DNA from: Candidatus Kuenenia stuttgartensis
Lineage (GTDB): Bacteria > Planctomycetota > Brocadiia > Brocadiales > Brocadiaceae
Direction: 5' to 3'
Length of the DNA stretch: 32,000 bases
Assembly: GCF_900232105.1 (NCBI RefSeq)
Contig: NZ_LT934425.1
Location: 2,880,001-2,912,000 of the forward strand
Part shown: positions 4,456 through 32,000 of the stretch, one piece after another
Numbering within the stretch: position 1 is the first letter of the stretch
Layout of the letters: every line of letters begins with the position of its first letter
Notes under the pieces: model-generated
What the model was told of the DNA's origin: nothing
Database searches by the model: none
The model's input: only the letters and a program-made list of their open reading frames with translations
Translations under genes and position numbers: made by a program

Positions 4456-4493
4456 GTTACAATCACCTCCACACTTAAAAAAGGAGGTGAATT

Positions 4494-6054: not shown

Positions 6055-6056
6055 CC

Positions 6057-6848: not shown

Positions 6849-6859
6849 GGAGGTCTACC

Positions 6860-7162
6860 ATGGCCCGTCTCTTTTCCCCTCAACTCTTGCGCTCATTACG
6901 AAACGATATCCCCATCGATCGACTCATCACTGATGTCCTCTCCATACCTCATAAATACTCCGAAGGCTATTTCCGCTTCCTCTGCCCTCTCTGTTCTGAA
7001 TTTAATTCCGCCACCAACCCAAATACGAACCTCGCCAGGTGTTTCCGTTGTAAAAAAAACTTTAATACCATCGACATCGTCATGGTAGATTCCAACTCCT
7101 CTTTCCCAGATGCTGTCTATCTGCTAAAATCCGTTTTACCTCAATATATTAATTCCACTTAA
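6860..7162 (+). CDS. Stand-alone CHC2/primase-type zinc-finger protein (100 aa)
   Basis: IPIDRLITDVLSIPHKYSEGYFRFLCPLCSEFNSATNPNTNLARCFRCKKNFNTIDIVM follows the DnaG zinc-binding-domain layout (CPxx...S..V.......CFxC...G..I.F) but with a CxxC...CxxC ligand set. An AAGGAGGT SD is present. Confidence 0.6.
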   Translation: MARLFSPQLLRSLRNDIPIDRLITDVLSIPHKYSEGYFRFLCPLCSEFNSATNPNTNLARCFRCKKNFNTIDIVMVDSNSSFPDAVYLLKSVLPQYINST

Positions 7163-7193
7163 TCTGAGAATTCCAGGTTCATTTATTGTGGGG

Positions 7194-7378
7194 CTTAGCA
7201 ACCGGGCATTTGCTCCACGATCCTTATGGACCGCTTCATGGACTCTCTCCCGGAACATCAGCTTACCCATAAAATTCAATACCGGTAAAAGCCCTGCATG
7301 TACCGTTAAGCCTTTCCCGCTCATCTCTGCCTTGATTTTCGGTTGTCTTTTGCTGTATTTTTTTGCTATATTCTTCAT
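7194..7378 (-). pseudogene. N-terminal stub (~60 codons) of an IS1380/IS4-superfamily transposase
   Basis: ...EMSGKGLTVHAGLLPVLNFMGKLMFRERVHEAVHKDRGANARL resembles the N-terminal (G)LTSxAGLLLL..F...L.L motif of IS1380-type transposases. Plausible sequence stops where the transposon end abuts it (~7194). Confidence 0.4.
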
Positions 7379-7457
7379 CGAAATGGTGAATCTCCTTTCA
7401 GGTGTTTTTTGTTATCAATATACCGCCGAATACCTTGGAAATCCTACCATTTCAATC

Positions 7458-9290
7458 CTATTCCTGCAACAAGGCTTTGCCTTGTTTGCAGGATTTAGGT
7501 TGTAGTTTATTGTAAATCGTGTGCTGCTTTTCCGTGGGCGCTGTGCAGGTTCTGACGTCAATAACGCAGCCGTCCTTTGTGTTCATGGTCGTTGTTACCC
7601 TTATATGGGTGGCAAGGATATTACGAATCGTATTCCAATTATAATGAACCCCTGCGGTTCTTAGCTTTTTTAATATCCCGGCAAGTATGTGATAGGCCAA
7701 TACAGTGACATGCACGTGGGCAATGGTTGGGGTATCTGTGTGGTGAAAGTTTGGCCGTAAACCAAGGTTGCCTTTCATTGTTTTAAAACTTTCCTCAACA
7801 GTACTCAACGACCTATGGAGCTTTGATATCTCTTCCCCGCTAAGATCAAGTCGGTTTGTCCGTAATACATACGTGCCTATGGCTTCTTCCTTTGCTTGCG
7901 CCTGAGCATTTTTCTTAAATTTGATATCGGTCGCTTTGCCATCCGTCTGTTCCACTTTGATCGTATATAAATTGCCCACCTTGTAGCGTTCTTTTAACCG
8001 GCCTATCCTCTCTATGATCGTATCATATTTTTTCTGTCTTTTTGGCTTCTCTAATCCTTCTTTTATTGCCGAGAGCGCCTCTTCAAACCTTTGTTCTTTC
8101 AGGGAAAGGATGGACTTCTCTTTTGGCTCTTTTGCCTCGCTGTGGCATAAAAGGAATGCCTCTTCTTCAGTACGGACTAATTTCATGCCCAACGTTGTTT
8201 TCCCGTCTGATAACATAATCTTCTCTTCGTCCGTTTCAGGCCAAAAAGTATCTTCAAAAGATTTCTTGCGCGAGACGACCACATATTTATAGCCACTCTT
8301 CCTGATAAGCGCAATGTTCTCTTCCGTTGCAACCCCTGCGTCCATAACTATCGTTCTATCATTTGAAAACATACCGTCTTCTTTTTTTAATCCCTCCAAA
8401 ATATCTTTCAGGGTACCAGGCTCCGACACATTGCCCTCAAAAACCTTGCTCTGCTTGGGAAATCCCTCTTCATCAACGGTAAGGGATAGCGTAATTAACG
8501 GACAATCATTACGGCTCTCTTTTGATTTGTAGCGCCGGGCCACCTTACTCCCTCTTTTGCTACCCTCAAAATAGGTATTTGTTAAATCATATAAAATCAC
8601 CGTCTCTTTAAGGGAAAATATCTCTCGCGCCCGCTTTGACAACTCTTGCTCTATGGCGGCATGATTCTCCCAAAGCAAGACTGCCGCGCGATGCAGCGCT
8701 TTATCATACAGTTTAACCCCGGAGTCCAACAGCTCTCCCGCCCCGCTTGTTTCAGAAAGCCATCGCACGGTATCACGCTCGCTGCCGGGATGAACCATTC
8801 TCCCCACAATGAGCATCTTGGAATAGGCAATCTGGTCATCTGTAAAATCAAGCCCTTGCAATATCTTATCAAACCCGTATTCATTCATTTGGCTTATGGC
8901 CACGTGTTCGGCGCCTACGGTCTTTGCATCATTTGTTATCAGGGAATTAATATTCACATGCTCGTATTGAGCAGGTTCTTCCCCTGCTGATTCACCGCCG
9001 GTAATACGTTCTTGCGCCCTGTCCAACCGCTCCTGTCTTATCTGGCTGGCATAATGCCTTGCTTTCGCCTCTATTTCAGGATCTTGAGGAAACAACGTTT
9101 TTTGATTTGCTAAAAATCCTTCAATGCAATTGGCAAGGGTCTTCCACTTCTCCTCGGGCAGACTAAGCTGCCCAAGGTTTAAGACTATTTGCTGTCTTGG
9201 CCCTGAAGGGGTGCGAATGGATTCGATGAGTTGGTGTTGTATGTAGCTCTTCCCGCCATTCACTTTTTTGATCTTTTCACGGATAAACAC
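7458..9290 (-). CDS. IS1634-family (IS4 superfamily) DDE transposase, apparently intact (610 aa, GTG start)
   Basis: The N-terminus MFIREKIKKVNGGKSYIQHQLIESIR is typical of IS1634-type proteins. Catalytic blocks are LYDLTNTYFEG, VMDAGVATEENI and STVEESFKTMKGNLGLRP. I could not define the IS ends. Confidence 0.85.
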   Translation of the reverse strand: MFIREKIKKVNGGKSYIQHQLIESIRTPSGPRQQIVLNLGQLSLPEEKWKTLANCIEGFLANQKTLFPQDPEIEAKARHYASQIRQERLDRAQERITGGESAGEEPAQYEHVNINSLITNDAKTVGAEHVAISQMNEYGFDKILQGLDFTDDQIAYSKMLIVGRMVHPGSERDTVRWLSETSGAGELLDSGVKLYDKALHRAAVLLWENHAAIEQELSKRAREIFSLKETVILYDLTNTYFEGSKRGSKVARRYKSKESRNDCPLITLSLTVDEEGFPKQSKVFEGNVSEPGTLKDILEGLKKEDGMFSNDRTIVMDAGVATEENIALIRKSGYKYVVVSRKKSFEDTFWPETDEEKIMLSDGKTTLGMKLVRTEEEAFLLCHSEAKEPKEKSILSLKEQRFEEALSAIKEGLEKPKRQKKYDTIIERIGRLKERYKVGNLYTIKVEQTDGKATDIKFKKNAQAQAKEEAIGTYVLRTNRLDLSGEEISKLHRSLSTVEESFKTMKGNLGLRPNFHHTDTPTIAHVHVTVLAYHILAGILKKLRTAGVHYNWNTIRNILATHIRVTTTMNTKDGCVIDVRTCTAPTEKQHTIYNKLQPKSCKQGKALLQE

Positions 9291-9549
9291 ACCGGTATTT
9301 TACCATGTAAGCAATGGCGCCGCAAGCATAAACAATAATATTCAGGCACTACATTAAACGCCGAAAGCAACATTCAACCATACCAATAGGTTACGACTAT
9401 TATACGCTCAATTTCTTGCCTTTTTCAGGGTAAATTTGTCGAAGTTGGGTTAAGAGTACCGTATTTTACAGTAGGCACTAATCCCATTCTCACGAGTAAA
9501 AATACCTTGTGAGTGAAAATAAAATAGTTAAAAAGTGTAGTAAAAGCAA

Positions 9550-10137
9550 CTATGCGACCAATCGAGCCCCTTCTGCCCTGGAAAAATCGATTCGTTCAAG
9601 AATAAATTTTGTAAGGATTGACTTTTGAGATGAATCCACGAGAAATTCAGGAAGGCAATTTCTCATTGCAATGGCCGTCACTTGTTCTGAAGGACAAATT
9701 CCCGGTCTCATAGTCCGCAACCATGACCCGAAGGAATTCCAAACAAGCGATGGAAATGCTGAAGAAATATATTGCAAAAGCCCCTGTGCAATAACGCCGG
9801 CCTGTATATGTCTGTGATAGGCTGCAAGTTTTCTGCGAACTGCATTTCTGTATTCAGAGCTTCTTTTGTGAACATGTTGATTGCCGGAACGCCTTTTAAT
9901 TGGCTGCATATTTCTCATCCAAAAATGGTAGGCATATGTGCCCAAGGTTCTAAGCGCCTGTTTGAAAGACACTTCGATTTTGAAACGCAATCCATACAGG
10001 CAGATAATTTCCATTGCATTAATAGTTAAATCCGTACTCATTAAAATAATTTTCCCTCTTTGAGGGTGATCCACCAATACAAATCGAATAAGAATACCCA
10101 CGGGTTTCCAAAGCAGATCAAGGGTTCTATAATTTAT
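9550..10137 (-). pseudogene. C-terminal part of an IS4/IS701-like DDE transposase, interrupted by the ISL3 element
   Basis: Contains the C-terminal Y-x2-R-x3-E block (YGLRFKIEVSFKQALR). The reading frame stays open upstream of the annotated GTG (GINYRTLDLLWKPVGILIRF...) right up to the ISL3 left end at 10138. Confidence 0.65.
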
Positions 10138-11518
10138 GCCTCATCCGCAGAATCTGTGGGTAAGTATTGGTTCCGGCAAATTACCAAGAGTATGATACAA
10201 GGCTGTTTGCAGGCATTCCAGAGATTTATAACCATAAGCCTTTCTCATAGTCAGTTTCGCCTTAAGGTTAAACCCCTCAACCGTACCGGAAGAAAGTCTG
10301 CCATCAGCCTTGAACCAGTTGAGAATGAGCTGCTTGTGATTGCGCAACATCTTTGCCACTTTTTTCATAGGTTCCAGGTTGGTTTTTAGGGTTCTCGTAA
10401 TCCAGTTCTCGAGAAACCTGTCTGCATACGCCGGATACTTATACTCCCAAAAACGCTGAAAATCTTCACGCATTAAATATGCCTTTATTGAACTCAGGTT
10501 GATCTTAACTATCTGGCTTAACCGTACCGTTTGCTTTTCTGTCAAGTTCTCAGGCCTTTTCAACAGTAACCAACGGCTCTTTTCCAAAACATTGTCTGTG
10601 CCTTCATCCTTGAGCTTTTTGACCTCTTCCCTCCGTATCTGGTCTATGGCTTCATTGAATTTCTTCATGATGTGGAAACGGTCAAGAATATTAAGCGCCT
10701 GGGAAGCCTTCTTCGCTATCACCTTCAGGTACGGCGACCACATATCGCTGCAAACGAATTTGATTCTCAGACAACGTTCTATACCTAACTCCATGAAAAA
10801 CTTCCGCAGGGTCTTTGCCTTCCGCTCAGGGCCACTCCATAAAAGCCTTTTGGCATGCGAATCAAGCTGATATACAAGGGTTAAATACTTGTGGCCACTC
10901 CAGACTTGTATCTCGTCTATTCCTATTTCCGTTATATTCTCCAAGTCCCTGTGGGCAAGGCCGTAGGCAACTACAAACTGCACTGCCCTATACACACTGT
11001 CCCAACTGGACTTGAATATCTCGGCTGTCTCTTTCCAACTCAGGCGTTTAGCCCATCGAGACAGGAATACCTTGTATGTGGTGGTCATCTGCTCCTTACC
11101 TTCTGACCAGGGAATTCGCTCTACATGGATTCCGTCCACTGGACAGGCGGCGCGTCGCGGGGAATATCGGAAAAATACTTGAAACCCCCATAATGGCGGA
11201 TACTCGTATAACCGGGACGGCTGTGTATCATACCCAGACGCTCTCTTCCCACATACTGAACATTCAGGCTTGGCATTTACCCTCGGCTTTATATCTGCTA
11301 CTAATGCCTTTCTACCATTTATGACCTCGAAACTGACTGCTTTGTAAACAAATGACTTGAAATTCTCTACCGTATTTAATAATGTCTTTATCTGCATTGC
11401 CTCTCCTTTTGGGTTAAGATGCTTTCTTGATAAAAAACATCTTACTCCCTTTGGGATGGCAATGCACCTTTTCTCTTACTAATCCTTACTTATTACCCAC
11501 AGATTCTGCGGACGAGCC
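10138..11518 (-). mobile_element. ISL3-family insertion sequence (1381 bp) with terminal inverted repeats
   Basis: The left end is gcctcatccgcagaatctgtgggtaa. The reverse complement of the right end is ggctcgtccgcagaatctgtgggtaa, so 24 of 26 bases match, with a GGCTC-type ISL3 terminus. It carries one transposase gene. Confidence 0.9.
10141..11397 (-). CDS. ISL3-family transposase (418 aa)
   Basis: An N-terminal zinc-finger region (CSVCGKR...C) is followed by IGIDEIQVWSGHKYLTLVYQLD..., ...CSDMWSPYLK... and ...TVEGFNLKAKLTMRKAYGYKS, which is the typical ISL3 DDE layout. Confidence 0.9.
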   Translation of the reverse strand: MQIKTLLNTVENFKSFVYKAVSFEVINGRKALVADIKPRVNAKPECSVCGKRASGYDTQPSRLYEYPPLWGFQVFFRYSPRRAACPVDGIHVERIPWSEGKEQMTTTYKVFLSRWAKRLSWKETAEIFKSSWDSVYRAVQFVVAYGLAHRDLENITEIGIDEIQVWSGHKYLTLVYQLDSHAKRLLWSGPERKAKTLRKFFMELGIERCLRIKFVCSDMWSPYLKVIAKKASQALNILDRFHIMKKFNEAIDQIRREEVKKLKDEGTDNVLEKSRWLLLKRPENLTEKQTVRLSQIVKINLSSIKAYLMREDFQRFWEYKYPAYADRFLENWITRTLKTNLEPMKKVAKMLRNHKQLILNWFKADGRLSSGTVEGFNLKAKLTMRKAYGYKSLECLQTALYHTLGNLPEPILTHRFCG

Positions 11519-19400: not shown

Positions 19401-19468
19401 TTTCCGATTAGTAACATCGTTTAATGTCAAAAAACCAGAGCGTTACGCATAATTTTATATTGAGGCGC

Positions 19469-19888
19469 ATGATGTCTTTTTTGGTTAGATTCGGGGTTTC
19501 TCTGGAAAAGGAACTCCTTAAGAAATTTGATACCCACATAAAGAAGAAAAAATATACCAACCGTTCGGAGGCAATACGTGATCTGATACGCGGTAATTTG
19601 GTGATGGAAGAATGGCAGGAAGGCAAGGAGATTACCGGTTCTATCACACTTGTTTACGATCATCATAAAAGGGAACTGGTAAACATGCTCATTGATATCC
19701 AGCACGACTATCATGGTATTATCCTTTCTTCCCAGCATATCCATCTAGATCATGATAATTGTCTTGAAATCATTGTTATAAAAGGCAAGCCGCAAATGGT
19801 AGAGGAATTATACGGAAAACTGAAATCGGCAAAAGGTGTTAAACACGGGGGCATATCCATGGCAACTACGGGAAAGGGGATTTTGTAA
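19469..19888 (+). CDS. nikR: Nickel-responsive regulator NikR (ribbon-helix-helix + C-terminal metal-binding domain)
   Basis: RFGVSLEKELLKKFD...YTNRSEAIRDLIR is the RHH domain. HDYHGIILSSQHIHLDHDNCLEIIVIKG is the His/Cys nickel-site region. The ATG at 19469/19472 follows GAGG, whereas the ORF-track start at 19424 adds an atypical extension. Confidence 0.85.
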   Translation: MMSFLVRFGVSLEKELLKKFDTHIKKKKYTNRSEAIRDLIRGNLVMEEWQEGKEITGSITLVYDHHKRELVNMLIDIQHDYHGIILSSQHIHLDHDNCLEIIVIKGKPQMVEELYGKLKSAKGVKHGGISMATTGKGIL

Positions 19889-19921
19889 ATATGGCCTTTT
19901 CTAATCAAGCCCGGATTTCTG

Positions 19922-19939
19922 CACTATGCTTGCATAGCG
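19922..19939. promoter_or_regulatory. Imperfect palindrome cactatgc-tt-gcatagcg (possible distal operator)
   Basis: It shares the CTATGC/GCATAG half-site core with the palindrome at 20022-20038, about 90 bp away. It is duplicated at 27095-27112. Confidence 0.25.
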
Positions 19940-20019
19940 GCAAACATGGATACAATGAGAACGGGTTTCCTTCTGCCATTGCAAAAAAACATCCCGGAAT
20001 ATTCGTGATATTATTTTTT

Positions 20020-20047
20020 TTGTGCTATGCAATAGCACGAGTATATT
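20020..20047 (+). promoter_or_regulatory. Candidate cbiM promoter with an embedded perfect 7-3-7 palindrome (putative NikR operator)
   Basis: TTGTGC (20020-20025), 16 nt, then TATATT (20042-20047). The palindrome GTGCTAT-gca-ATAGCAC (20022-20038) fills the spacer. It lies 41 bp upstream of the cbiM start. Confidence 0.4.
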
Positions 20048-20079
20048 ATACGTACTACTGGTAACCGGAGGAGACATTT

Positions 20080-20685
20080 TTGCATATTAGCGACGGAGTA
20101 CTTTCTCCCTACATTGTCATTACCGGATGGGCTGTTGCAGCCCCTTCGTTAGCGATGTCGGTAAAAAGCCTGAAACCTGACAAAGTCGGTGCATACGGAG
20201 TAATTGCCGCTGTTTTTTTTGCAGGTTCGACAATCCACATACCCCTTGGACCTTTCAGCATGCATCTTGTCCTCAATGGTATTGCAGGACTTTTACTGGG
20301 ATGGAGCGCTGTAACCGTAATAACGGTAGGCCTTTTGCTGCAGGCTTTGTTCCTTGGTTTTGGAGGATTGACTGTGTTGGGGGTAAATATTGCTGTTATG
20401 GCGTTGCCTGGCGCGATTATCGGCATGCTTGGACGCCATTGGATGAAACAGTTTTCAGCGAAAAAACGGCCATGGATAGGATCGTTCGCGGGTGGCGGTG
20501 CTGTATGTATTTCGTCCGTTTTACTCTTTGTTGCGCTTTCTACAACCCATGCGGCGCTGGCGCCCCTTGCCAAACTGGTTTTTTGGGGACATGTTCCTGT
20601 CATACTTGTTGAAGGCGTTATCAGTTATTGGCTGGTACACTTTTTGCAAAAAGCAAAACCTTCGTTATTAGGAATTTTACATTGA
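20080..20685 (+). CDS. cbiM: ECF-type Ni/Co transporter substrate-capture component CbiM/NikM (copy 1)
   Basis: TTG start 7 nt after GGAGGA. The N-terminus is the hallmark MHISDGVL (MHIxDG). The protein has about 6 TM helices and is followed by cbiQ and cbiO. Confidence 0.9.
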   Translation: MHISDGVLSPYIVITGWAVAAPSLAMSVKSLKPDKVGAYGVIAAVFFAGSTIHIPLGPFSMHLVLNGIAGLLLGWSAVTVITVGLLLQALFLGFGGLTVLGVNIAVMALPGAIIGMLGRHWMKQFSAKKRPWIGSFAGGGAVCISSVLLFVALSTTHAALAPLAKLVFWGHVPVILVEGVISYWLVHFLQKAKPSLLGILH

Positions 20686-21099
20686 AAGCTTTCTTATTCG
20701 TTTTTTTTTGTATCTTTTTTTCGGTGCCTTTAGCGGTATATGCACACGGACTTTCTCTTTTTTCTAAGGAGAAAACATTGTATGCATCTTACAGCGATCA
20801 TACACCTGCCTCAGGAGCAAAGGTTGTTCTTGTGGATGCAAATGGCGTAATAATTCTTCAGGATAAAATGGATGAAAAGGGGATAGTGGAAGTTGCCGGA
20901 GAATTTGGAGACAATACCTCACTTAATCATTGTAGATGATTCCGGAGGTCATCGTGCAATGATAACATGGGAGGAATTTCTTAAAGAACGCCCAAAGGGG
21001 TTGTTAGACATTTTAAGTATCCGCGTGGTAATTGGAGTCATGTTCATTATCGGCGGCGGTTATGCCATACAACGGTTTTTATTAAAAAAAAAGACATAA
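20682..21099 (+). pseudogene. CbiN/NikL-type 2-TM auxiliary component, frameshifted in copy 1
   Basis: Relative to the intact copy (27855-28271) there is an extra G at 20886 (gatagtgg against gatatgg). This splits the gene into ORFs 20628-20939 and 20893-21099. Confidence 0.75.
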
Positions 21100-21818
21100 T
21101 GCCATTTTGCAAACTACAAAAATTGAAATTGCCGCCGGCTTCTACCCGCACAGGAACGATACTGGTTTTGCTTGTACTGGTGGGTATAGGTTTGCTGAAT
21201 AATTTTGGGCCTCTTGTTGTTTGCCTGTTTATGGTGTTATTGTTTGGTGTATTCACAGTTGGAAACATATTCATTGTTGTATGCCATGCAAAAGGAGTCT
21301 GGGTTTTTTCCCTTCTCACCGGTGTAAGCCTTTTGCTAACAAAAGAGGGCAGAGCGCTTGCCCCAATCCTCATGGTCAAAATGTTTTCAATGTGGTTGTG
21401 GAGTGTAATCTGGATTAAATGGGTGGGATTTGAACGTATTTTGTCAACCTTAGAGAAAATGGGAATACCGGCAATTTTGTTAAATGTCATTGCATTTACC
21501 ACGCGTTTTTTACCTATTATGGGGGAACGGATAAAAATGACGTTTGCCGCACAGTCTTCACGCGGTGCAAAAAAGGGGTTGCGTTCCCTGCAATTACGAA
21601 ACCTTGCCGGGGGGATTGGCAGTGTGCTTTTGTCTAGTTTTGAGCAATCTGAAAATGTTGAACGTGCAATGCAATCACGCGGATTTTGCGGAACATATAC
21701 TATCAGCACAGACAAAGACGAAGCGCCCTCGTATGTTGTTTTGTCTCTGATGTTTTTAATGGCTTTTTTAATTTGGACCGGAGTGATTTGCGATGTCCTG
21801 TGTGGTAAGTGTTTATAA
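21099..21818 (+). CDS. cbiQ: ECF transporter transmembrane (T) component CbiQ/NikQ (copy 1, intact)
   Basis: Polytopic protein with the two coupling-helix motifs AAQSSRGA and ERAMQSRGF. Start and stop overlap as TAATG. Confidence 0.85.
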   Translation: MPFCKLQKLKLPPASTRTGTILVLLVLVGIGLLNNFGPLVVCLFMVLLFGVFTVGNIFIVVCHAKGVWVFSLLTGVSLLLTKEGRALAPILMVKMFSMWLWSVIWIKWVGFERILSTLEKMGIPAILLNVIAFTTRFLPIMGERIKMTFAAQSSRGAKKGLRSLQLRNLAGGIGSVLLSSFEQSENVERAMQSRGFCGTYTISTDKDEAPSYVVLSLMFLMAFLIWTGVICDVLCGKCL

Positions 21819-22521
21819 CGTTACGTTTCTTTATCCGAATGGTGTGCAGGCGATATCAGGATTATCATTTTCCGTTCACCAACATGAAAAGGTGGGTCTG
21901 ATCGGGCCTAGTGGCGCTGGCAAAACAACCCTTTTTTGGCACTTAAACGGGCTTTTAAGACCACATTCGGGAGAAGTTCGTGTTTTGGACAAACCGCTTA
22001 CCGGACTCAAAAATATTAATGAAGTTCGGAAGCATGTCGCCCTTACTTTTCAGCAGGTAAACGATCAGCTTTTTTGTTCTTCCGTCTGGGAGGAAATTGC
22101 ATTTGGACCGAAAAATTTGTATTGGCCAAAGCAGCAGGTGGCAGACACGGTGGAAAAGTGGCTGGCGTATTTTGAATTAAATGATGTTCGGGAACGGCCG
22201 CCGCATCATTTATCGGGAGGGCAGAAGCGCAGGGTTGCACTGGCGGCAGCTATGGCGATGGAACCCGATTTGTTAATCCTCGATGAACCAGCAAACGACC
22301 TGGACCACCGTCATAGACGTAAATTAATAACCTATCTGAAAGGATTAAGAATTGCTCTTCTGGTGGCCTCACATGATTTACGCCTGATAGAGGAATTGAC
22401 CGAACGGTGCATTCTTATGGATAAAGGCAGGATTGTTGCAGACAAAACTACCGTTGAGTTGGTACATAATGAAGGTATTTTAAAAAAGTACGGGATGGAG
22501 GCAATACCGATAAAAGAATAA
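21793..22521 (+). CDS. cbiO: ECF/ABC transporter ATPase CbiO/NikO (copy 1)
   Basis: Walker A is GPSGAGKTT, the signature is LSGGQKRRV, Walker B is LLILDEP and the H-loop is ASHD. Confidence 0.92.
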   Translation: MSCVVSVYNVTFLYPNGVQAISGLSFSVHQHEKVGLIGPSGAGKTTLFWHLNGLLRPHSGEVRVLDKPLTGLKNINEVRKHVALTFQQVNDQLFCSSVWEEIAFGPKNLYWPKQQVADTVEKWLAYFELNDVRERPPHHLSGGQKRRVALAAAMAMEPDLLILDEPANDLDHRHRRKLITYLKGLRIALLVASHDLRLIEELTERCILMDKGRIVADKTTVELVHNEGILKKYGMEAIPIKE

Positions 22522-22601
22522 ATATTTTTTTAATTATGGTGGCACGATAGTAATAAGTGTGCTATTTAATTCCCTTTATTTTGTTAAAAGGAGTTCTTGT
22601 G

Positions 22602-23609
22602 ATGAACAATCGTTTTTTTTACAGTTTTATTCTTATACTTTTTTTCTGTTGCGCAAGTAACGCTGGAAAAGTGTATGCCCATCATGGAGGCGTTTCTACC
22701 GCCTTTGGCCCTGGCGCACCTGTTGAAACTGCATCGCCTATGACTCTCGGGAAAGGGAAATTTTTGCTTTACGAAAAAATAGAATTTGCGTCTTTTGAAC
22801 AAAAGAACCATGCTGACCCTGAAAACATTGAAAACTTTACCTTCTTTAACACATTAGCCGGCTATGGCATTACTGACTATTTATCCCTCTATCTTGTGAT
22901 GCCTTATGCTATTAAAGAACAAGACTCCTTAGGCACATCGAAGGGGTTTGGTGATGCTGGATTTTTAGTACAATACGGTTTTAAGTACGGCGAGAGAAAC
23001 GGGATTCGGGGTTTTTATAATAACGGCCCGGAAGATACTATTGGAGAAAGTTACACGACTAATGATCTGAAAATGTCGGTTTTAGGGGGTTTTACTGTTC
23101 AGACCGGTGATATTACAAACGAAGATAATAATGGCAACAGGTTTGACATGGGCATGCAGACAGGTTTTGCCGCGCCAACGTTTATGACAGGTTTCTCCGC
23201 ATCAAAAATGCTTTTTCAGCACTTTACTCTTACCGGGGAGACATCATTTACCACCTTTACCCGTCATGATGACGGTAAACCTGGAAATGAGATCCGTTTC
23301 AATCTGGCCGGAGGGTATGAAATATTTGAAAATCCTCAGGGATTTTTCCAAAGGGTAGATATTATTACTGAATCAAACTTCCTCCATCTGACAAAAGATG
23401 AAGACGAACACCATCACGATGAAGATGACAGCGGGGGAACGATTCTGTATCTTTCACCTGGCTTTCGCGTTTCTCTTAAGAAAAATATCAGTATCGGAGG
23501 GCTTCTGAAATTTCCCGTATGGAAGGATTTGAACAGGGAATCGGAGCAACAGGGCGCTGAAGGACTTGAACACTATAGGGCAATTCTCACCGTGACATAT
23601 TCTTTTTAA
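22602..23609 (+). CDS. Outer-membrane beta-barrel protein with a His/Asp-rich loop (putative metal channel), copy 1
   Basis: Signal peptide ...NAGKVYA|HHGG. The body shows an alternating beta-strand pattern. There is a DEDEHHHDEDDSGG loop and a C-terminal ...TVTYSF (terminal Phe). An SD (aaggag) lies before GTG/ATG at 22599/22602. Confidence 0.7.
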   Translation: MNNRFFYSFILILFFCCASNAGKVYAHHGGVSTAFGPGAPVETASPMTLGKGKFLLYEKIEFASFEQKNHADPENIENFTFFNTLAGYGITDYLSLYLVMPYAIKEQDSLGTSKGFGDAGFLVQYGFKYGERNGIRGFYNNGPEDTIGESYTTNDLKMSVLGGFTVQTGDITNEDNNGNRFDMGMQTGFAAPTFMTGFSASKMLFQHFTLTGETSFTTFTRHDDGKPGNEIRFNLAGGYEIFENPQGFFQRVDIITESNFLHLTKDEDEHHHDEDDSGGTILYLSPGFRVSLKKNISIGGLLKFPVWKDLNRESEQQGAEGLEHYRAILTVTYSF

Positions 23610-23679
23610 GGACGCCAACCCTGGCAGGGTTTTCTGGTCAATAATACCTTAAACCATTTATAGAGAAGGAGGAAAAATT

Positions 23680-24249
23680 ATGCTAAAAACACGAATATGG
23701 AAAAAGCAGATGATTGCAATACTTTTTTGGGCTTGTTGTACATTTCTGTCTCATCAAAAATGCATATTTGCACATGAAGGCCATGACCACTGGAGTAATA
23801 CCCCTATAACCATTAAAAGATCGACAGTAGTGCATTTGCAGTCGCTATTGGAATCATATGATCTTCTCTACAAAAAACTTATAGAGAAAGATATCCAAAA
23901 TATTCCTGTATTGGCGCAAAATATTATGGATGCTGCGCAACAGGGTGTTCAAACTGAAAATAAAGGTGAGGGGCGTTATATGATGGAACATATTTTTCAG
24001 CATGCGATATCTCTTAAAGAATGTGAAACCCTGGAAAATGCAAAAGAATCTTTAGGGTTAATAAGCCGTGAACTGTTTCCGTTCTTTATTGCATGGCCAA
24101 TGCAGCTTAAAGAAAACAAGTTAAGGCTTTATCATTGTAAAAATGATGAAAAATACTGGTTTCAGGCAGAAAATAGCGCTCCAAATTGCCCTTATGCTCA
24201 CGATGAATTATCAACATGCATTATTATTGAGGAAGTAGCGTATAAATGA
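23680..24249 (+). CDS. Exported helical protein with N-terminal HEGHDH and a C-terminal Cys/His motif (DUF3347-like by recollection), copy 1
   Basis: AAGGAGG SD is present. The signal peptide is ...HQKCIFA|HEGHDHW. The C-terminus is LYHCKNDEKYWFQAENSAPNCPYAHDELSTC. Confidence 0.65.
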   Translation: MLKTRIWKKQMIAILFWACCTFLSHQKCIFAHEGHDHWSNTPITIKRSTVVHLQSLLESYDLLYKKLIEKDIQNIPVLAQNIMDAAQQGVQTENKGEGRYMMEHIFQHAISLKECETLENAKESLGLISRELFPFFIAWPMQLKENKLRLYHCKNDEKYWFQAENSAPNCPYAHDELSTCIIIEEVAYK

Positions 24250-24656
24250 ATTGAACGACCATCTTTGCTTTAGAAAAACATGACAGTCTTATGACACCGT
24301 GTGCCCATAATTGGTCACTGTTTATATCAAGCCTTGCAGGATAGATGCGACTTTGTGTCTTAAGAAAAAAAACCGATGCGTGACCATTTATAGTCTTTCT
24401 GCGTTCTCATGTACTAATTGCATCTTTTTTGTGCTGTAATCGTAACATATTTAACAGTAGTAGCTTGTGCTTTCTTTGGTTGTGGTGGTCGTGTTGTTTT
24501 TTTCGAAATGGCGCACTTCTTGCTAAGTGTTGTTACATACAAAGTGTTTTGTTGTGTATTATTTTGCGCAGAATTTTTTACGGAAGGGGGGTGAATGTAC
24601 GGACGCATTTAAGTGTAAAAGCAGAAATTTTCGTGAGTTAGGATTGAGCAGATGTT

Positions 24657-25820
24657 ATGAATTTTGAAGGAGGTAAGCGAAGAATTATGATACGAAAGGG
24701 AATGATAGGAGCGGTGATGCTTGGAGCTGCGGTAGCGATAAGTGGCGGAGTAGCGACTGCGGGGTATATACAGGGTACGCATGTAAAGACGGATTTACCC
24801 GGGCCGTTTCACATAACGATGTCGCCGGATGGTAGTACGTTATTTATATCGAATCAATCTGGGCACAGTGTAACGTTTGTGGATGCAAGGACGCAGAAGG
24901 TAACGGGTGAGGTCGCTGTGAGGGTACAGCCTGAGGCTTCAGCGGTTACGCCTGACGGGGCATTTTTGTATGTATGTAATGCAGAGAGCGACAGTGTATC
25001 GGTAGTGGACATACAGAGGAAGCAGGAGATCAAGGAGATAAAGGTAGGTGACTGGCCGAGCGGGATCAAGATTTCGCCTGATGGCAAGACTGCCTATGTT
25101 GCATGTTCCGGTTGCATGTGGAACGCGATTGATGTAATTGATACGGGGAGGATGGAGAAGGTAAGGTCGATATATACTTCAGATTACGGTCCCAGGATGG
25201 TGGAGATATCTCCTGATGGGAAGACCCTTGTTGCGATACTTGACACGGTAGGATCGATCAACCGGAGCGTTGATTTTATTGACATTGCCAGTGGCAGGGT
25301 AGTAGAGAACAGGGTAATCCATGAGAGTTCCAACCTGAGGGATGTTGTATATACGCCGGATGGTAAATACATAGCTGTAACCCACCAGACGCCGAAGAAC
25401 TGGTTGCCGGTATGTGAAGCGGAGAATGGTCAGGTATTTACGAACAACGTAACAATCATAGAGACCAAGGCCGGTGGTAAGGTAGCGAGATTACCGTTGG
25501 ACGATCTCAACAATTACGATGGCAATCCGTATGGTATGGCGATGGACCCTAAGGGCAAGTATTTGTACATTGGGGTAAGAGGGATGCATCGTGTAACGAT
25601 ACTGGATATGGATAAGGTATTGGGTCTGGTGAGGAGCAGCACGCAGGAGGAGCTTGATTATCTGAGGGACGACCTTGGGTTGGTAAGAGATTATCTTGTT
25701 GCCAGGGTTCCTACGGGTCTGGGGCCAAGTTCGGTATGTTTATCACCTGACGGCAAATTTTGTTATGCGGCCAACTATTTTTCCAACAATGTAACCGTGA
25801 TAAGGACTGCGGTTGATTAA
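24657..25820 (+). CDS. Exported YVTN-type beta-propeller repeat protein (start may be the ATG at 24687), copy 1
   Basis: Reiterated (S/T)PDGKxxYV.N...V.V(I)D units, for example ISPDGKTAYVAC, ISPDGKTLVAI, YTPDGKYIAVT and LSPDGKFCYAAN. Signal peptide is MIGAVMLGAAVAISGGVATA. Confidence 0.85.
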   Translation: MNFEGGKRRIMIRKGMIGAVMLGAAVAISGGVATAGYIQGTHVKTDLPGPFHITMSPDGSTLFISNQSGHSVTFVDARTQKVTGEVAVRVQPEASAVTPDGAFLYVCNAESDSVSVVDIQRKQEIKEIKVGDWPSGIKISPDGKTAYVACSGCMWNAIDVIDTGRMEKVRSIYTSDYGPRMVEISPDGKTLVAILDTVGSINRSVDFIDIASGRVVENRVIHESSNLRDVVYTPDGKYIAVTHQTPKNWLPVCEAENGQVFTNNVTIIETKAGGKVARLPLDDLNNYDGNPYGMAMDPKGKYLYIGVRGMHRVTILDMDKVLGLVRSSTQEELDYLRDDLGLVRDYLVARVPTGLGPSSVCLSPDGKFCYAANYFSNNVTVIRTAVD

Positions 25821-25862
25821 GGATTGTATGGAGTGTGAGAGTTATTTATTTTTGGAAAACAA

Positions 25863-26924
25863 ATGGCAAGAGAAATGAGATTAGGAGGAAAAGAAAGAAT
25901 GAAGACAGGAGTAGTGAAAATAGGATTAGTTGCGGCCCTGGGGGTAGTGGGGCTGATATCGGCGGGCGGCGTATATGCCGGTCAGCCGCGGGTAATTTCC
26001 ACGATCCAGACGGGAGCTACGTGGGAACCGCTGGGAAGGGAAGAACCTTTGACGGTGCCGGAAGTGCATTTTCGTGTAAAGCATTCACCTTTTAAGAGTG
26101 AGCTGGTAAGATACGGGCAGTTCCAGTTTAACGATGCAGCGTGGAGTTTGCAGGGATCATACTCATGCGCCAGTTGTCATTATGAGAGAGGCCAGACAAC
26201 CGGTTTGATTTGGGATTTGGGAGATGAAGGATGGGGTAGCTGGAAGAACACGAAGTATATTCGTGGCGGCCGATATCTTCCTCCGTTCAGGCATGAGGGG
26301 TTCACTGGTCATCCTGATGAAATAGTAGGGGCAACCAGTTCACTTGACAGGGTATGTGGAAGGGATCCTGGATTTGTGTTCAGGAGTGAGAATTTTTCTC
26401 CGATGAGATTAGAGGCGCTCATTTGTTACATCAGGGCGTTGGAATTTACCGGGAGTCCATTCAGGAATGCGGATGGGAGTTTAACCGAAGCCCAGAAGAG
26501 GGGTCAGAAGATATTTGAGGATCCGAAGGTAGGATGTCTTGAGTGTCATCCTGGCGATCCGATGGATCCGAGGGCATTGTTCAGTGATGCACAGACGCAT
26601 GATGTAGGAACCGGCAGGGTAGGTGTAAATGGTTTCAGGTCAACACCTGGGAAGGTATTTAACATATCGGCGTTAGAGGCAGGTGAGGATCCATATGGTG
26701 TTGAGAGCAACACGCCGATCATTGGATTGGATCTTGTGAAGGAATTTGATACGCCGACATTGAGAGACATCTATGCATCAGGCACCTATTTCCATGATGG
26801 TGGTGCAAGGACATTGATGGACACCATAAACAACACGGTAAATGATAAGGACATGCATGGAAGGACGTCTCATTTAAAGCAGCAGGAGCTCCAGGATTTG
26901 GTGGAGTACCTGAAGGCGTTATAA
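25863..26924 (+). CDS. Di-haem cytochrome c peroxidase/MauG-family protein (start probably the ATG at 25899)
   Basis: Two CxxCH motifs (CASCH, CLECH) and the family block FDTPTLRDIYASGTYFHDGGARTL. A signal peptide follows the AGGAGG SD. Confidence 0.8.
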   Translation: MAREMRLGGKERMKTGVVKIGLVAALGVVGLISAGGVYAGQPRVISTIQTGATWEPLGREEPLTVPEVHFRVKHSPFKSELVRYGQFQFNDAAWSLQGSYSCASCHYERGQTTGLIWDLGDEGWGSWKNTKYIRGGRYLPPFRHEGFTGHPDEIVGATSSLDRVCGRDPGFVFRSENFSPMRLEALICYIRALEFTGSPFRNADGSLTEAQKRGQKIFEDPKVGCLECHPGDPMDPRALFSDAQTHDVGTGRVGVNGFRSTPGKVFNISALEAGEDPYGVESNTPIIGLDLVKEFDTPTLRDIYASGTYFHDGGARTLMDTINNTVNDKDMHGRTSHLKQQELQDLVEYLKAL

Positions 26925-27003
26925 GAGAGAAGTGTATGAATGTGTAGTATAAGCGATAAAAATTTAAGGACAATAAGTGAAAGGAGAAGGCCAATAGATG
27001 GGT

Positions 27004-27061
27004 AAAAGGTGTTAAACACGGGGGCATATCCATGGCAACTACGGGAAAGGGGATTTTGTAA
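27004..27061 (+). pseudogene. Orphan 3' remnant of nikR (last ~18 codons plus stop) at the duplication junction
   Basis: Identical to 19831-19888 (...KGVKHGGISMATTGKGIL*), but preceded by the sequence downstream of the cytochrome gene. Confidence 0.9.
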
Positions 27062-27192
27062 ATATGGCCTTTTCTAATCAAGCCCGGATTTCTGCACTAT
27101 GCTTGCATAGCGGCAAACATGGATACAATGAGAACGGGTTTCCTTCTGCCATTGCAAAAAAACATCCCGGAATATTCGTGATATTATTTTTT

Positions 27193-27220
27193 TTGTGCTA
27201 TGCAATAGCACGAGTATATT
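27193..27220 (+). promoter_or_regulatory. Second copy of the candidate cbiM promoter and 7-3-7 palindrome
   Basis: Identical to 20020-20047. The palindrome is at 27195-27211. Confidence 0.4.
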
Positions 27221-27252
27221 ATACGTACTACTGGTAACCGGAGGAGACATTT

Positions 27253-27858
27253 TTGCATATTAGCGACGGAGTACTTTCTCCCTACATTGTCATTACCGGA
27301 TGGGCTGTTGCAGCCCCTTCGTTAGCGATGTCGGTAAAAAGCCTGAAACCTGACAAAGTCGGTGCATACGGAGTAATTGCCGCTGTTTTTTTTGCAGGTT
27401 CGACAATCCACATACCCCTTGGACCTTTCAGCATGCATCTTGTCCTCAATGGTATTGCAGGACTTTTACTGGGATGGAGCGCTGTAACCGTAATAACGGT
27501 AGGCCTTTTGCTGCAGGCTTTGTTCCTTGGTTTTGGAGGATTGACTGTGTTGGGGGTAAATATTGCTGTTATGGCGTTGCCTGGCGCGATTATCGGCATG
27601 CTTGGACGCCATTGGATGAAACAGTTTTCAGCGAAAAAACGGCCATGGATAGGATCGTTCGCGGGTGGCGGTGCTGTATGTATTTCGTCCGTTTTACTCT
27701 TTGTTGCGCTTTCTACAACCCATGCGGCGCTGGCGCCCCTTGCCAAACTGGTTTTTTGGGGACATGTTCCTGTCATACTTGTTGAAGGCGTTATCAGTTA
27801 TTGGCTGGTACACTTTTTGCAAAAAGCAAAACCTTCGTTATTAGGAATTTTACATTGA
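27253..27858 (+). CDS. cbiM: CbiM/NikM (copy 2)
   Basis: Its protein is identical to that of 20080-20685. Confidence 0.9.
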   Translation: MHISDGVLSPYIVITGWAVAAPSLAMSVKSLKPDKVGAYGVIAAVFFAGSTIHIPLGPFSMHLVLNGIAGLLLGWSAVTVITVGLLLQALFLGFGGLTVLGVNIAVMALPGAIIGMLGRHWMKQFSAKKRPWIGSFAGGGAVCISSVLLFVALSTTHAALAPLAKLVFWGHVPVILVEGVISYWLVHFLQKAKPSLLGILH

Positions 27859-28271
27859 AAGCTTTCTTATTCGTTTTTTTTTGTATCTTTTTTTCGGTGC
27901 CTTTAGCGGTATATGCACACGGACTTTCTCTTTTTTCTAAGGAGAAAACATTGTATGCATCTTACAGCGATCATACACCTGCCTCAGGAGCAAAGGTTGT
28001 TCTTGTGGATGCAAATGGCGTAATAATTCTTCAGGATAAAATGGATGAAAAGGGGATATGGAAGTTGCCGGAGAATTTGGAAACAATACCTCACTTAATC
28101 ATTGTAGATGATTCCGGAGGTCATCGTGCAATGATAACATGGGAGGAATTTCTTAAAGAACGCCCAAAGGGGTTGTTAGACATTTTAAGTATCCGCGTGG
28201 TAATTGGAGTCATGTTCATTATCGGCGGCGGTTATGCCATACAACGGTTTTTATTAAAAAAAAAGACATAA
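27855..28271 (+). CDS. CbiN/NikL-type auxiliary component: N-terminal signal/TM, ~75-aa periplasmic beta-rich domain, C-terminal TM (intact copy)
   Basis: A TTG at 27855 overlaps the cbiM stop (TTGA). The sequence is MKAFLFVFFCIFFSVPLAVYA|HG..., then AKVVLVDANGVIILQDKMDEKGIW...DDSGGHRAM, then the C-terminal TM IRVVIGVMFIIGGGYAI. The position between M and Q matches CbiN/NikL, but it has no CbiN sequence motifs. Confidence 0.6.
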   Translation: MKAFLFVFFCIFFSVPLAVYAHGLSLFSKEKTLYASYSDHTPASGAKVVLVDANGVIILQDKMDEKGIWKLPENLETIPHLIIVDDSGGHRAMITWEEFLKERPKGLLDILSIRVVIGVMFIIGGGYAIQRFLLKKKT

Positions 28272-28991
28272 TGCCATTTTGCAAACTACAAAAATTGAAA
28301 TTGCCGCCGGCTTCTACCCGCACAGGAACGATACTGGTTTTGCTTGTACTGGTGGGTATAGGTTTGCTGAATAATTTTGGGCCTCTTGTTGTTTGCCTGT
28401 TTATGGTGTTATTGTTTGGTGTATTCACAGTTGGAAACATATTCATTGTTGTATGCCATGCAAAAGGAGTCTGGGTTTTTTTCCCTTCTCACCGGTGTAA
28501 GCCTTTTGCTAACAAAAGAGGGCAGAGCGCTTGCCCCAATCCTCATGGTCAAAATGTTTTCAATGTGGTTGTGGAGTGTAATCTGGATTAAATGGGTGGG
28601 ATTTGAACGTATTTTGTCAACCTTAGAGAAAATGGGAATACCGGCAATTTTGTTAAATGTCATTGCATTTACCACGCGTTTTTTACCTATTATGGGGGAA
28701 CGGATAAAAATGACGTTTGCCGCACAGTCTTCACGCGGTGCAAAAAAGGGGTTGCGTTCCCTGCAATTACGAAACCTTGCCGGGGGGATTGGCAGTGTGC
28801 TTTTGTCTAGTTTTGAGCAATCTGAAAATGTTGAACGTGCAATGCAATCACGCGGATTTTGCGGAACATATACTATCAGCACAGACAAAGACGAAGCGCC
28901 CTCGTATGTTGTTTTGTCTCTGATGTTTTTAATGGCTTTTTTAATTTGGACCGGAGTGATTTGCGATGTCCTGTGTGGTAAGTGTTTATAA
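28271..28991 (+). pseudogene. cbiQ: CbiQ/NikQ, frameshifted in copy 2
   Basis: A T7 run at 28486-28492 replaces the T6 run at 21304-21309. This splits the gene into ORFs 28271-28591 and 28377-28991. Confidence 0.8.
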
Positions 28992-29694
28992 CGTTACGTT
29001 TCTTTATCCGAATGGTGTGCAGGCGATATCAGGATTATCATTTTCCGTTCACCAACATGAAAAGGTGGGTCTGATCGGGCCTAGTGGCGCTGGCAAAACA
29101 ACCCTTTTTTGGCACTTAAACGGGCTTTTAAGACCACATTCGGGAGAAGTTCGTGTTTTGGACAAACCGCTTACCGGACTCAAAAATATTAATGAAGTTC
29201 GGAAGCATGTCGCCCTTACTTTTCAGCAGGTAAACGATCAGCTTTTTTGTTCTTCCGTCTGGGAGGAAATTGCATTTGGACCGAAAAATTTGTATTGGCC
29301 AAAGCAGCAGGTGGCAGACACGGTGGAAAAGTGGCTGGCGTATTTTGAATTAAATGATGTTCGGGAACGGCCGCCGCATCATTTATCGGGAGGGCAGAAG
29401 CGCAGGGTTGCACTGGCGGCAGCTATGGCGATGGAACCCGATTTGTTAATCCTCGATGAACCCGCAAACGACCTGGACCACCGTCATAGACGTAAATTAA
29501 TAACCTATCTGAAAGGATTAAGAATTGCTCTTCTGGTGGCCTCACATGATTTACGCCTGATAGAGGAATTGACCGAACGGTGCATTCTTATGGATAAAGG
29601 CAGGATTGTTGCAGACAAAACTACCGTTGAGTTGGTACATAATGAAGGTATTTTAAAAAAGTACGGGATGGAGGCAATACCGATAAAAGAATAA
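28966..29694 (+). CDS. cbiO: CbiO/NikO ATPase (copy 2)
   Basis: The protein is identical to copy 1, with one synonymous change (cca to ccc at 29463). Confidence 0.92.
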   Translation: MSCVVSVYNVTFLYPNGVQAISGLSFSVHQHEKVGLIGPSGAGKTTLFWHLNGLLRPHSGEVRVLDKPLTGLKNINEVRKHVALTFQQVNDQLFCSSVWEEIAFGPKNLYWPKQQVADTVEKWLAYFELNDVRERPPHHLSGGQKRRVALAAAMAMEPDLLILDEPANDLDHRHRRKLITYLKGLRIALLVASHDLRLIEELTERCILMDKGRIVADKTTVELVHNEGILKKYGMEAIPIKE

Positions 29695-29774
29695 ATATTT
29701 TTTTAATTATGGTGGCACGATAGTAATAAGTGTGCTATTTAATTCCCTTTATTTTGTTAAAAGGAGTTCTTGTG

Positions 29775-30782
29775 ATGAACAATCGTTTTTTTTACAGTTT
29801 TATTCTTATACTTTTTTTCTGTTGCGCAAGTAACGCTGGAAAAGTGTATGCCCATCATGGAGGCGTTTCTACCGCCTTTGGCCCTGGCGCACCTGTTGAA
29901 ACTGCATCGCCTATGACTCTCGGGAAAGGGAAATTTTTGCTTTACGAAAAAATAGAATTTGCGTCTTTTGAACAAAAGAACCATGCTGACCCTGAAAACA
30001 TTGAAAACTTTACCTTCTTTAACACATTAGCCGGCTATGGCATTACTGACTATTTATCCCTCTATCTTGTGATGCCTTATGCTATTAAAGAACAAGACTC
30101 CTTAGGCACATCGAAGGGGTTTGGTGATGCTGGATTTTTAGTACAATACGGTTTTAAGTACGGCGAGAGAAACGGGATTCGGGGTTTTTATAATAACGGC
30201 CCGGAAGATACTATTGGAGAAAGTTACACGACTAATGATCTGAAAATGTCGGTTTTAGGGGGTTTTACTGTTCAGACCGGTGATATTACAAACGAAGATA
30301 ATAATGGCAACAGGTTTGACATGGGCATGCAGACAGGTTTTGCCGCGCCAACGTTTATGACAGGTTTCTCCGCATCAAAAATGCTTTTTCAGCACTTTAC
30401 TCTTACCGGGGAGACATCATTTACCACCTTTACCCGTCATGATGACGGTAAACCTGGAAATGAGATCCGTTTCAATCTGGCCGGAGGGTATGAAATATTT
30501 GAAAATCCTCAGGGATTTTTCCAAAGGGTAGATATTATTACTGAATCAAACTTCCTCCATCTGACAAAAGATGAAGACGAACACCATCACGATGAAGATG
30601 ACAGCGGGGGAACGATTCTGTATCTTTCACCTGGCTTTCGCGTTTCTCTTAAGAAAAATATCAGTATCGGAGGGCTTCTGAAATTTCCCGTATGGAAGGA
30701 TTTGAACAGGGAATCGGAGCAACAGGGCGCTGAAGGACTTGAACACTATAGGGCAATTCTCACCGTGACATATTCTTTTTAA
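29775..30782 (+). CDS. Outer-membrane beta-barrel protein with His/Asp-rich loop (copy 2)
   Basis: Identical to 22602-23609. Confidence 0.7.
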   Translation: MNNRFFYSFILILFFCCASNAGKVYAHHGGVSTAFGPGAPVETASPMTLGKGKFLLYEKIEFASFEQKNHADPENIENFTFFNTLAGYGITDYLSLYLVMPYAIKEQDSLGTSKGFGDAGFLVQYGFKYGERNGIRGFYNNGPEDTIGESYTTNDLKMSVLGGFTVQTGDITNEDNNGNRFDMGMQTGFAAPTFMTGFSASKMLFQHFTLTGETSFTTFTRHDDGKPGNEIRFNLAGGYEIFENPQGFFQRVDIITESNFLHLTKDEDEHHHDEDDSGGTILYLSPGFRVSLKKNISIGGLLKFPVWKDLNRESEQQGAEGLEHYRAILTVTYSF

Positions 30783-30852
30783 GGACGCCAACCCTGGCAG
30801 GGTTTTCTGGTCAATAATACCTTAAACCATTTATAGAGAAGGAGGAAAAATT

Positions 30853-31422
30853 ATGCTAAAAACACGAATATGGAAAAAGCAGATGATTGCAATACTTTTT
30901 TGGGCTTGTTGTACATTTCTGTCTCATCAAAAATGCATATTTGCACATGAAGGCCATGACCACTGGAGTAATACCCCTATAACCATTAAAAGATCGACAG
31001 TAGTGCATTTGCAGTCGCTATTGGAATCATATGATCTTCTCTACAAAAAACTTATAGAGAAAGATATCCAAAATATTCCTGTATTGGCGCAAAATATTAT
31101 GGATGCTGCGCAACAGGGTGTTCAAACTGAAAATAAAGGTGAGGGGCGTTATATGATGGAACATATTTTTCAGCATGCGATATCTCTTAAAGAATGTGAA
31201 ACCCTGGAAAATGCAAAAGAATCTTTAGGGTTAATAAGCCGTGAACTGTTTCCGTTCTTTATTGCATGGCCAATGCAGCTTAAAGAAAACAAGTTAAGGC
31301 TTTATCATTGTAAAAATGATGAAAAATACTGGTTTCAGGCAGAAAATAGCGCTCCAAATTGCCCTTATGCTCACGATGAATTATCAACATGCATTATTAT
31401 TGAGGAAGTAGCGTATAAATGA
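30853..31422 (+). CDS. Exported HEGHDH helical protein (copy 2)
   Basis: Identical to 23680-24249. Confidence 0.65.
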   Translation: MLKTRIWKKQMIAILFWACCTFLSHQKCIFAHEGHDHWSNTPITIKRSTVVHLQSLLESYDLLYKKLIEKDIQNIPVLAQNIMDAAQQGVQTENKGEGRYMMEHIFQHAISLKECETLENAKESLGLISRELFPFFIAWPMQLKENKLRLYHCKNDEKYWFQAENSAPNCPYAHDELSTCIIIEEVAYK

Positions 31423-31829
31423 ATTGAACGACCATCTTTGCTTTAGAAAAACATGACAGTCTTATGACACCGTGTGCCCATAATTGGTCACTGTTTATAT
31501 CAAGCCTTGCAGGATAGATGCGACTTTGTGTCTTAAGAAAAAAAACCGATGCGTGACCATTTATAGTCTTTCTGCGTTCTCATGTACTAATTGCATCTTT
31601 TTTGTGCTGTAATCGTAACATATTTAACAGTAGTAGCTTGTGCTTTCTTTGGTTGTGGTGGTCGTGTTGTTTTTTTCGAAATGGCGCACTTCTTGCTAAG
31701 TGTTGTTACATACAAAGTGTTTTGTTGTGTATTATTTTGCGCAGAATTTTTTACGGAAGGGGGGTGAATGTACGGACGCATTTAAGTGTAAAAGCAGAAA
31801 TTTTCGTGAGTTAGGATTGAGCAGATGTT

Positions 31830-32000
31830 ATGAATTTTGAAGGAGGTAAGCGAAGAATTATGATACGAAAGGGAATGATAGGAGCGGTGATGCTTGGAGC
31901 TGCGGTAGCGATAAGTGGCGGAGTAGCGACTGCGGGGTATATACAGGGTACGCATGTAAAGACGGATTTACCCGGGCCGTTTCACATAACGATGTCGCCG
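31830..32000 (+). CDS. YVTN beta-propeller protein, copy 2, 5' part (runs off the window)
   Basis: Identical to 24657-24827. Confidence 0.8.
   Translation, partial: MNFEGGKRRIMIRKGMIGAVMLGAAVAISGGVATAGYIQGTHVKTDLPGPFHITMSP

Follow-up and report, generated by a model that had tools for sequence, protein, structure and literature searches.

A probable recent tandem duplication of a nickel transporter operon and a partial hydrazine synthase cluster in Candidatus Kuenenia stuttgartiensis

Introduction

The closed PacBio genome of Candidatus Kuenenia stuttgartiensis MBR1 contains a partial hzsB/hzsC copy (KSMBR1_2703-2704) near the complete hydrazine synthase (HZS) cluster KSMBR1_2711-2713 (Frank et al. 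2018, PMC5854607). The authors checked their assembly on an independent single-molecule real-time (SMRT) cell, with a read concordance of >99.99%, and suggested a gene-dosage effect on hydrazine synthase, which is the only published idea about the function of the partial copy (PMC5854607). Later papers repeat this description, and KSMBR1_2705 was listed as a third hzsA by Smeulders et al. 2020 (PMC7438415). Here we analyze a 32,000-nt stretch of the K. stuttgartiensis genome (assembly GCF_900232105.1, contig NZ_LT934425.1, positions 2,880,001 to 2,912,000; further referred to as the window), in which a 7173-bp segment carrying a nickel transporter operon, hzsB and hzsC is repeated head to tail. 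The window most likely originates from strain MBR1. As in the MBR1 partial copy, its orphan hzsB-hzsC pair lacks hzsA and precedes a complete hzsBCA cluster by seven to eight genes, and the six genes between tags 2704 and 2711 match cbiM, a nikL-like gene, cbiQ, cbiO and the genes for an outer-membrane protein (OMP)-like protein and a 189-aa protein. The layout of the window thus agrees with the description by Frank et al., and the feature itself is already known. Unlike the present account, the MBR1 papers describe neither a 7173-bp tandem duplication nor the co-doubled nickel transporter, the join point or the frameshifts; our additions are the base-level join, the co-duplicated transporter and a warning on two frameshifts.

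Multiple hzs copies are common in anammox genomes. The closed CSTR1 genome was reported to possess "two identical gene sets" of hzs and no partial copy (PMC7709395), and dispersed identical hzsBCA sets are also known in Brocadia and others. These dispersed sets are complete and distant, whereas the new copy in the window is adjacent and truncated exactly at the start of hzsA.

Bacterial tandem duplications with short-homology joins are formed by RecA-independent illegitimate recombination, a process studied in Salmonella and Escherichia coli. The window resembles these duplications in its head-to-tail arrangement, single novel join, microhomology of a few bases within an imperfect patch, lack of an insertion sequence (IS) at the join and near-identity of the copies, whereas selection, instability and higher amplification belong to those systems. 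It also resembles the false duplications known from long-read assemblies, which occur where gaps are closed or contigs joined; there, too, adjacent near-identical copies differ by indels and the assembly is gap-filled; unlike them, it shows a significant homology patch and has indirect independent support.

The tandem repeat and its join point

The analyzed sequences point to a real, very recent and strain-specific 7173-bp tandem duplication in the K. stuttgartiensis chromosome, a reading that we consider likely. By self-comparison of the window, positions 19831-24827 recur at 27004-32000 with an offset of 7173 and 99.92% identity over 4998 aligned columns, and no further long repeats were detected in the window. 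Unit 1 (19831-27003, 7173 bp; this and the further features of the nikR-hzs locus are on the forward strand unless stated otherwise) includes, in order, the nikR tail, the cbiM promoter region, cbiM, the nikL-like gene, cbiQ, cbiO, the genes for the OMP-like and 189-aa proteins, hzsB, hzsC and the first bases of hzsA. Unit 2 is represented by its first 4997 bp (27004-32000), as the window ends inside hzsB. The two units are distinguished by two substitutions and two 1-nt indels, and between the indels the offset drops to 7172; these four differences and the shift in offset are exactly those given in the initial annotation of this DNA. The constant offset and single novel junction, together with the comparison with native parental sequences, bear out the head-to-tail duplication with one novel join that had been proposed there, and the near-identity of the copies argues for a recent event, as was also supposed. 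The published MBR1 gene numbering implies that there are exactly two units followed by hzsA, while the window alone reaches only into unit 2.

The join point reads ATGGGTAAAAGG (26998-27009). Its parental patches are ATGGGTAAGAGG at the start of hzsA and ATCGGCAAAAGG at the 3' end of nikR (19825-19836), which recombined with the hzsA start; the native hzsA start was taken from contigs L001, L002, L003, L006 and L007. In a longer native context, the hzsA start reads ...CCAATAGATGGGTAAGAGGAAA and the nikR tail ...GAAATCGGCAAAAGGTGTT, to be compared with ...CCAATAGATGGGTAAAAGGTGTT at the window junction. The sequence is specific to hzsA as far as 27003 and to nikR from 27006 onward; therefore, the crossover is located in the dinucleotide AA (27004-27005), and not in the "gg" microhomology that had been assumed before the native parental sequences were considered. 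The crossover sits in a 12-nt patch of imperfect homology with 9 matches out of 12, and in a simulation with random site pairs at least 9 of 12 matches around a join were obtained with P ~0.003. Such a position fits short-homology recombination rather than an arbitrary abutment of contig ends. No IS element was found at the join.

The join falls 79 nt after the hzsC stop (26924) and leads into the last 18 codons of nikR, in agreement with the initial placement about 80 bp past a cytochrome gene and onto the last ~18 nikR codons. The right breakpoint is located 8 nt inside the start of hzsA, the HZS alpha-subunit gene, rather than in anonymous intergenic DNA. Two gene remnants are left at this site. 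The hzsA remnant (26998-27015) retains the ribosome-binding site and ATG plus 5 bases, and now forms a mini open reading frame (ORF) encoding MGKRC and a stop. The nikR remnant (27004-27061) comprises the last 18 codons and the stop codon and has no start codon.

We propose that the duplication arose by unequal sister-chromosome recombination of the short-homology illegitimate type at this imperfect patch, whose parental sequences at the nikR 3' end and the hzsA start codon are 7173 bp apart. The event would be recent and would have occurred within the MBR1 lineage, giving the order nikR - [cbiM-nikL-cbiQ-cbiO - OMP-like - 189-aa - hzsB - hzsC] - join - [cbiM ... hzsB - hzsC] - hzsA.

The locus in other Kuenenia assemblies

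The exact gamma-subunit protein was found on many contigs of Ca. K. stuttgartiensis, L001-L010 among them, each time followed after 73 nt by an 809-aa hzsA (PF18582); the window therefore belongs to an anammox bacterium. The hzsBCA genes occur in two contexts, downstream of a sigma-54 regulator (the canonical cluster; L001, L002, L004 and others) or downstream of the nickel transporter (L003, L006, L089, L090). Nucleotide identity between both contexts begins at window position 24668, and therefore the hzsBCA cluster of the nickel-transporter context is itself an older dispersed copy. The initial annotation had advised a check of the locus in related strains; when this was done, all long contigs found by the exact-protein look-up proved to be single-copy. 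Among them, hzsA directly follows hzsC in the closed CSTR1 genome (L089), in a low-abundance strain (L090) and in ~20 other assemblies, with the order nikR ... hzsB-hzsC-hzsA-dinB in CSTR1. The single copy is thus shown to be the ancestral state. In a genome contig collection without K. stuttgartiensis, the best HzsC match had 92% identity (K. hertensis and a metagenome-assembled genome from a lake).

Indirect independent support for the junction may be seen in the short-read Logan contig L098 (SRR15661999_1646), which starts exactly at position 19831/27004, the first base common to the nikR and junction contexts, and ends at 24716, a graph-branch end that it shares with L092 and L097. In a de Bruijn assembly with k=31, a contig starts where a second predecessor path merges, and the junction would create a second predecessor path at 19831, which would account for the start of L098 at this position. 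By chance, a contig would be expected to start at exactly this base only about once in several thousand cases.

Several points weigh against a real duplication. The support from L098 is indirect, as it is a contig end and not a junction read, and a literature search for run SRR15661999 gave no result. The duplication was judged here from assembled sequences. It is absent from CSTR1, and contig L092 (SRR5323064) has no break at 19831 and only one other mismatch in 9.2 kb, with L091 being similar. The junction 27-mer had 0 matches in Joint Genome Institute (JGI) metagenome contigs, a result of little weight, since a control 33-mer common to both contexts was found in 1 contig. Finally, the MBR1 assembly relied on reads that had been binned by coverage from a mixture of strains, on PBJelly scaffolding and gap filling and on the clipping of repeated contig ends by hand, and such a procedure can create false tandem duplications.

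The caution of the initial annotation about an assembly artefact was appropriate. An artefact would have arisen if two contig or scaffold ends over a single nik-hzs locus were clipped and subsequently placed end to end or gap-filled, so that one 7.2-kb segment was written twice as independent, imperfect consensus sequences. The use of PBJelly, the hand clipping of repeated contig ends along with 1 kb, and the strain mixture would all allow it, the 4.9-kb hzsBCA repeat at the locus is a place where contigs tend to end, and the duplication was seen in no other genome examined. Nevertheless, we regard this explanation as unlikely. Arbitrary abutment would not be expected to place the join in a significant homology patch, an independent contig begins exactly at the junction base, and the authors of the MBR1 genome not only report the concordance on an independent SMRT cell but also explicitly list the partial copy. 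The junction is thus neither arbitrary nor devoid of homology or of indirect outside support.

A further explanation is that the junction is real in only part of the population or that the copy number varies, the two-copy consensus being a snapshot of an unstable amplification that possibly includes excised 7.2-kb circles. Heterogeneity would be compatible with the inherent instability of tandem duplications, with the presence of several strains in the culture and with the near-identical strains without the graph break that are represented by L091 and L092. Yet the duplication is part of the dominant strain's polished consensus, its presence in a run deposited years later is suggested by L098, and direct evidence for heterogeneity was not found; we consider this explanation very improbable.

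Differences between the two units

To characterize the four differences between the units, both were aligned with 18 independent single-copy sequences. Unit 1 has an extra G at 20886 that is absent between 28058 and 28059 of unit 2. The second difference is G/A at 20910/28082, the third is a T6 run at 21304-21309 against T7 at 28476-28482, and the fourth is A/C at 22290/29463. All four lie on or directly beside sites that are polymorphic between two common haplotypes, X (L090, L091, L092, L102) and Y (L006, L100, L105, L108). Moreover, both indels are hybrids of two natural alleles of equal length: ATAGTGG in unit 1 combines ATATGG of X and ATGTGG of Y, while T7C3 in unit 2 combines T6C3 of X and T7C2 of Y (the latter also found in L098). 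The two haplotypes are interleaved along unit 1, which is Y-type at 20886, 20910 and 22290 and X-type at 20891 and 20920, as in a consensus derived from mixed templates.

The indels disrupt the nikL-like gene in unit 1 and cbiQ in unit 2, both of which are intact in every other assembly. Because the indels are hybrid alleles and the affected genes are intact elsewhere, both frameshifts probably reflect errors in a consensus of PacBio reads from mixed strains or mixed copies rather than pseudogenisation; the two units themselves are probably identical or nearly identical. Ongoing gene conversion, which had been offered as one explanation for the scarcity of differences, is not needed. Neither gene conversion nor independent mutation was accepted as the origin of the four differences, given their location on polymorphic sites and the hybrid nature of the indels. 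The restriction of the differences to consensus-type hybrid calls, including two frameshifts seen in no other assembly, is what an assembly artefact would produce, but a real duplication polished with mixed reads gives the same pattern.

Gene content of the repeated unit

The nikR gene, which contributes only its tail to the repeated unit, is present in a single copy (19424-19888). Its product has the Pfam domains NikR_C and RHH_1 and matches the NCBIfam NikR equivalog with 181 bits (cut-off 105); in public gene calls it has 138 aa and starts at 19472. Downstream of it lie the genes of the transporter, of which cbiM/nikM, cbiQ and cbiO were assigned by Pfam, the first two also by NCBIfam. The cbiM copies (20080-20685 and 27253-27858) encode identical proteins. 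The next gene encodes a NikL-like small membrane protein with a weak match to the NikL family (40.6 bits against a cut-off of 100 in NCBIfam). Copy 1 (20628-21099) is frameshifted by the extra G at 20886 into ORFs 20628-20939 and 20893-21099, whereas copy 2 (27801-28271) is an intact 156-aa ORF that has 106-138 aa in public calls. The opposite is observed for cbiQ, where copy 1 (21099-21818, 239 aa) is intact and copy 2 (28271-28991) is frameshifted by the T7C3 run at 28476-28485. The cbiO ATPase gene follows (21793-22521 and 28966-29694), its copies differing by the substitution at 22290/29463. The presence of CbiM, CbiQ and CbiO next to nikR points to a putatively NikR-regulated energy-coupling factor (ECF) nickel/cobalt transporter of the Cbi/NikMNQO type.

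Two palindromes without strand orientation were found in the nikR-cbiM intergenic region of each unit. The perfect palindrome GTGCTAT-GCA-ATAGCAC (20022-20038; copy at 27195-27211) is located ~40 nt upstream of cbiM, and the related palindrome CTATGC-TT-GCATAG occupies 19924-19937 (copy at 27097-27110). Both are candidate operators. In the KUST-like strain from the same culture (L090; GCA_900232175.1, OCTL01000042.1), an IS encoding a 345-aa DDE_3 transposase is inserted between nikR and cbiM at a site corresponding to window positions ~20006-20014, just upstream of the perfect palindrome.

The transporter genes are separated from hzsB by genes for two secreted proteins, neither of which gave a family match in Pfam or NCBIfam. 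The first (22557-23609; copy 2 at 29730-30782) is a His/Asp-rich OMP-like protein that has 335-350 aa and carries a signal peptide; it is possibly an outer-membrane protein and contains the motifs HHGG and DEDEHHHDEDD. The second (23680-24249; copy 2 at 30853-31422) has 189 aa and contains a HEGHDH motif. Both may be accessory metal-handling proteins.

The orphan hzsB gene (24657-25820) encodes the HZS beta subunit, with 719 bits in the NCBIfam hydrazine_beta model (cut-off 560), and the orphan hzsC gene (25863-26924) encodes the gamma subunit, with 725 bits in hydrazine_gamma (cut-off 625). The "propeller" and "cytochrome" labels of the initial annotation are generic and missed the identity of these genes, which are the biologically notable cargo of the repeat: both products exceed curated equivalog cut-offs and belong to an HZS cluster. 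Since only 8 nt of hzsA remain after hzsC in unit 1, the copy is partial and hzsA is not adjacent. In unit 2, hzsB begins at 31830 and is truncated by the window end at 32000, and hzsA lies beyond this point. The label "hzsA" for KSMBR1_2705 is probably an annotation slip, as nothing but these 8 nt of hzsA follows the orphan hzsC (26998-27252). The locus tags were searched for in the supplements of Frank et al. 2018, and none were found.

An orphan hzsC homologue without hzsB and hzsA also occurs in several anammox genomes, some of them closed (L019, L022, L070, L045, L017, L023), and in B. pituitae (L019, AP021856.1) the distance between it and a complete hzsBCA cluster is ~35 kb. Kuenenia MBR1 is therefore not unique in having a partial hzs copy.

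Gene dosage and regulation

When the separate canonical hzs cluster is counted, hzsB and hzsC are present in three copies and hzsA in two; there are two nickel ECF-transporter operons, each with its 190-nt upstream region and palindromes, and one nikR. The duplication would thus provide an extra dosage of the HZS beta and gamma subunits. Apart from the palindrome upstream of cbiM with its weak tail, terminator prediction gave nothing in the interval from the orphan hzsC to the second cbiM, and therefore transcription that starts at the very strong hzs promoter could plausibly continue into the second operon for the nickel transporter. The hzs genes are very highly expressed according to published expression data.

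The initial annotation had related the repeat to an adaptive response to limitation, in which a locus for metal uptake is amplified. This proposal is unsupported, given that nikR is not duplicated and that nik and hzs genes are unlinked in other anammox genera, where no nik genes were found beside hzs. For the latter reason, a conserved functional module composed of nickel and hzs genes was also rejected. It could be speculated that a selected dosage change helped MBR1 to take over from the KUST strain in the membrane bioreactor, through more hzsB and hzsC and through a second nickel operon that depends on hzs read-through and escapes NikR, but we find this scenario improbable. In its variant in which the frameshifts are real, the NikL-like protein would be lost in unit 1 and CbiQ in unit 2, and the two operon copies would be mutually dependent.

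Reads and peptides are not assignable to individual hzs copies. For users of the reference genome, the "third copy" results from a simple tandem duplication in which the nickel transporter is doubled as well, the two transporter-gene frameshifts are probably reference errors and the KSMBR1_2705 label is probably wrong. The understanding of anammox biology is unchanged by this feature, which is known and mechanistically ordinary.

Other features of the window

Upstream of the repeat, position 16950 within mgtE shows a 1-nt difference from CSTR1, with an ORF of 464 aa in the window and 454 aa in CSTR1. As L091 and L092 agree with the window at this position, the strains appear to differ here in reality. 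Collinearity of CSTR1 with the window begins only at 11729. The stretch 2253-11397 is rich in IS elements and includes DDE_Tnp_1 transposases at 2253-3383 and 7458-9290 (minus strand), a Mu-like transposase with an AAA_22 ATPase at 4690-6848 and an ISL3 transposase at 10141-11397. In the low-abundance strain (L001), a copy of the element at 4408-7203 with 99.9% identity is located beside the canonical hzs cluster.

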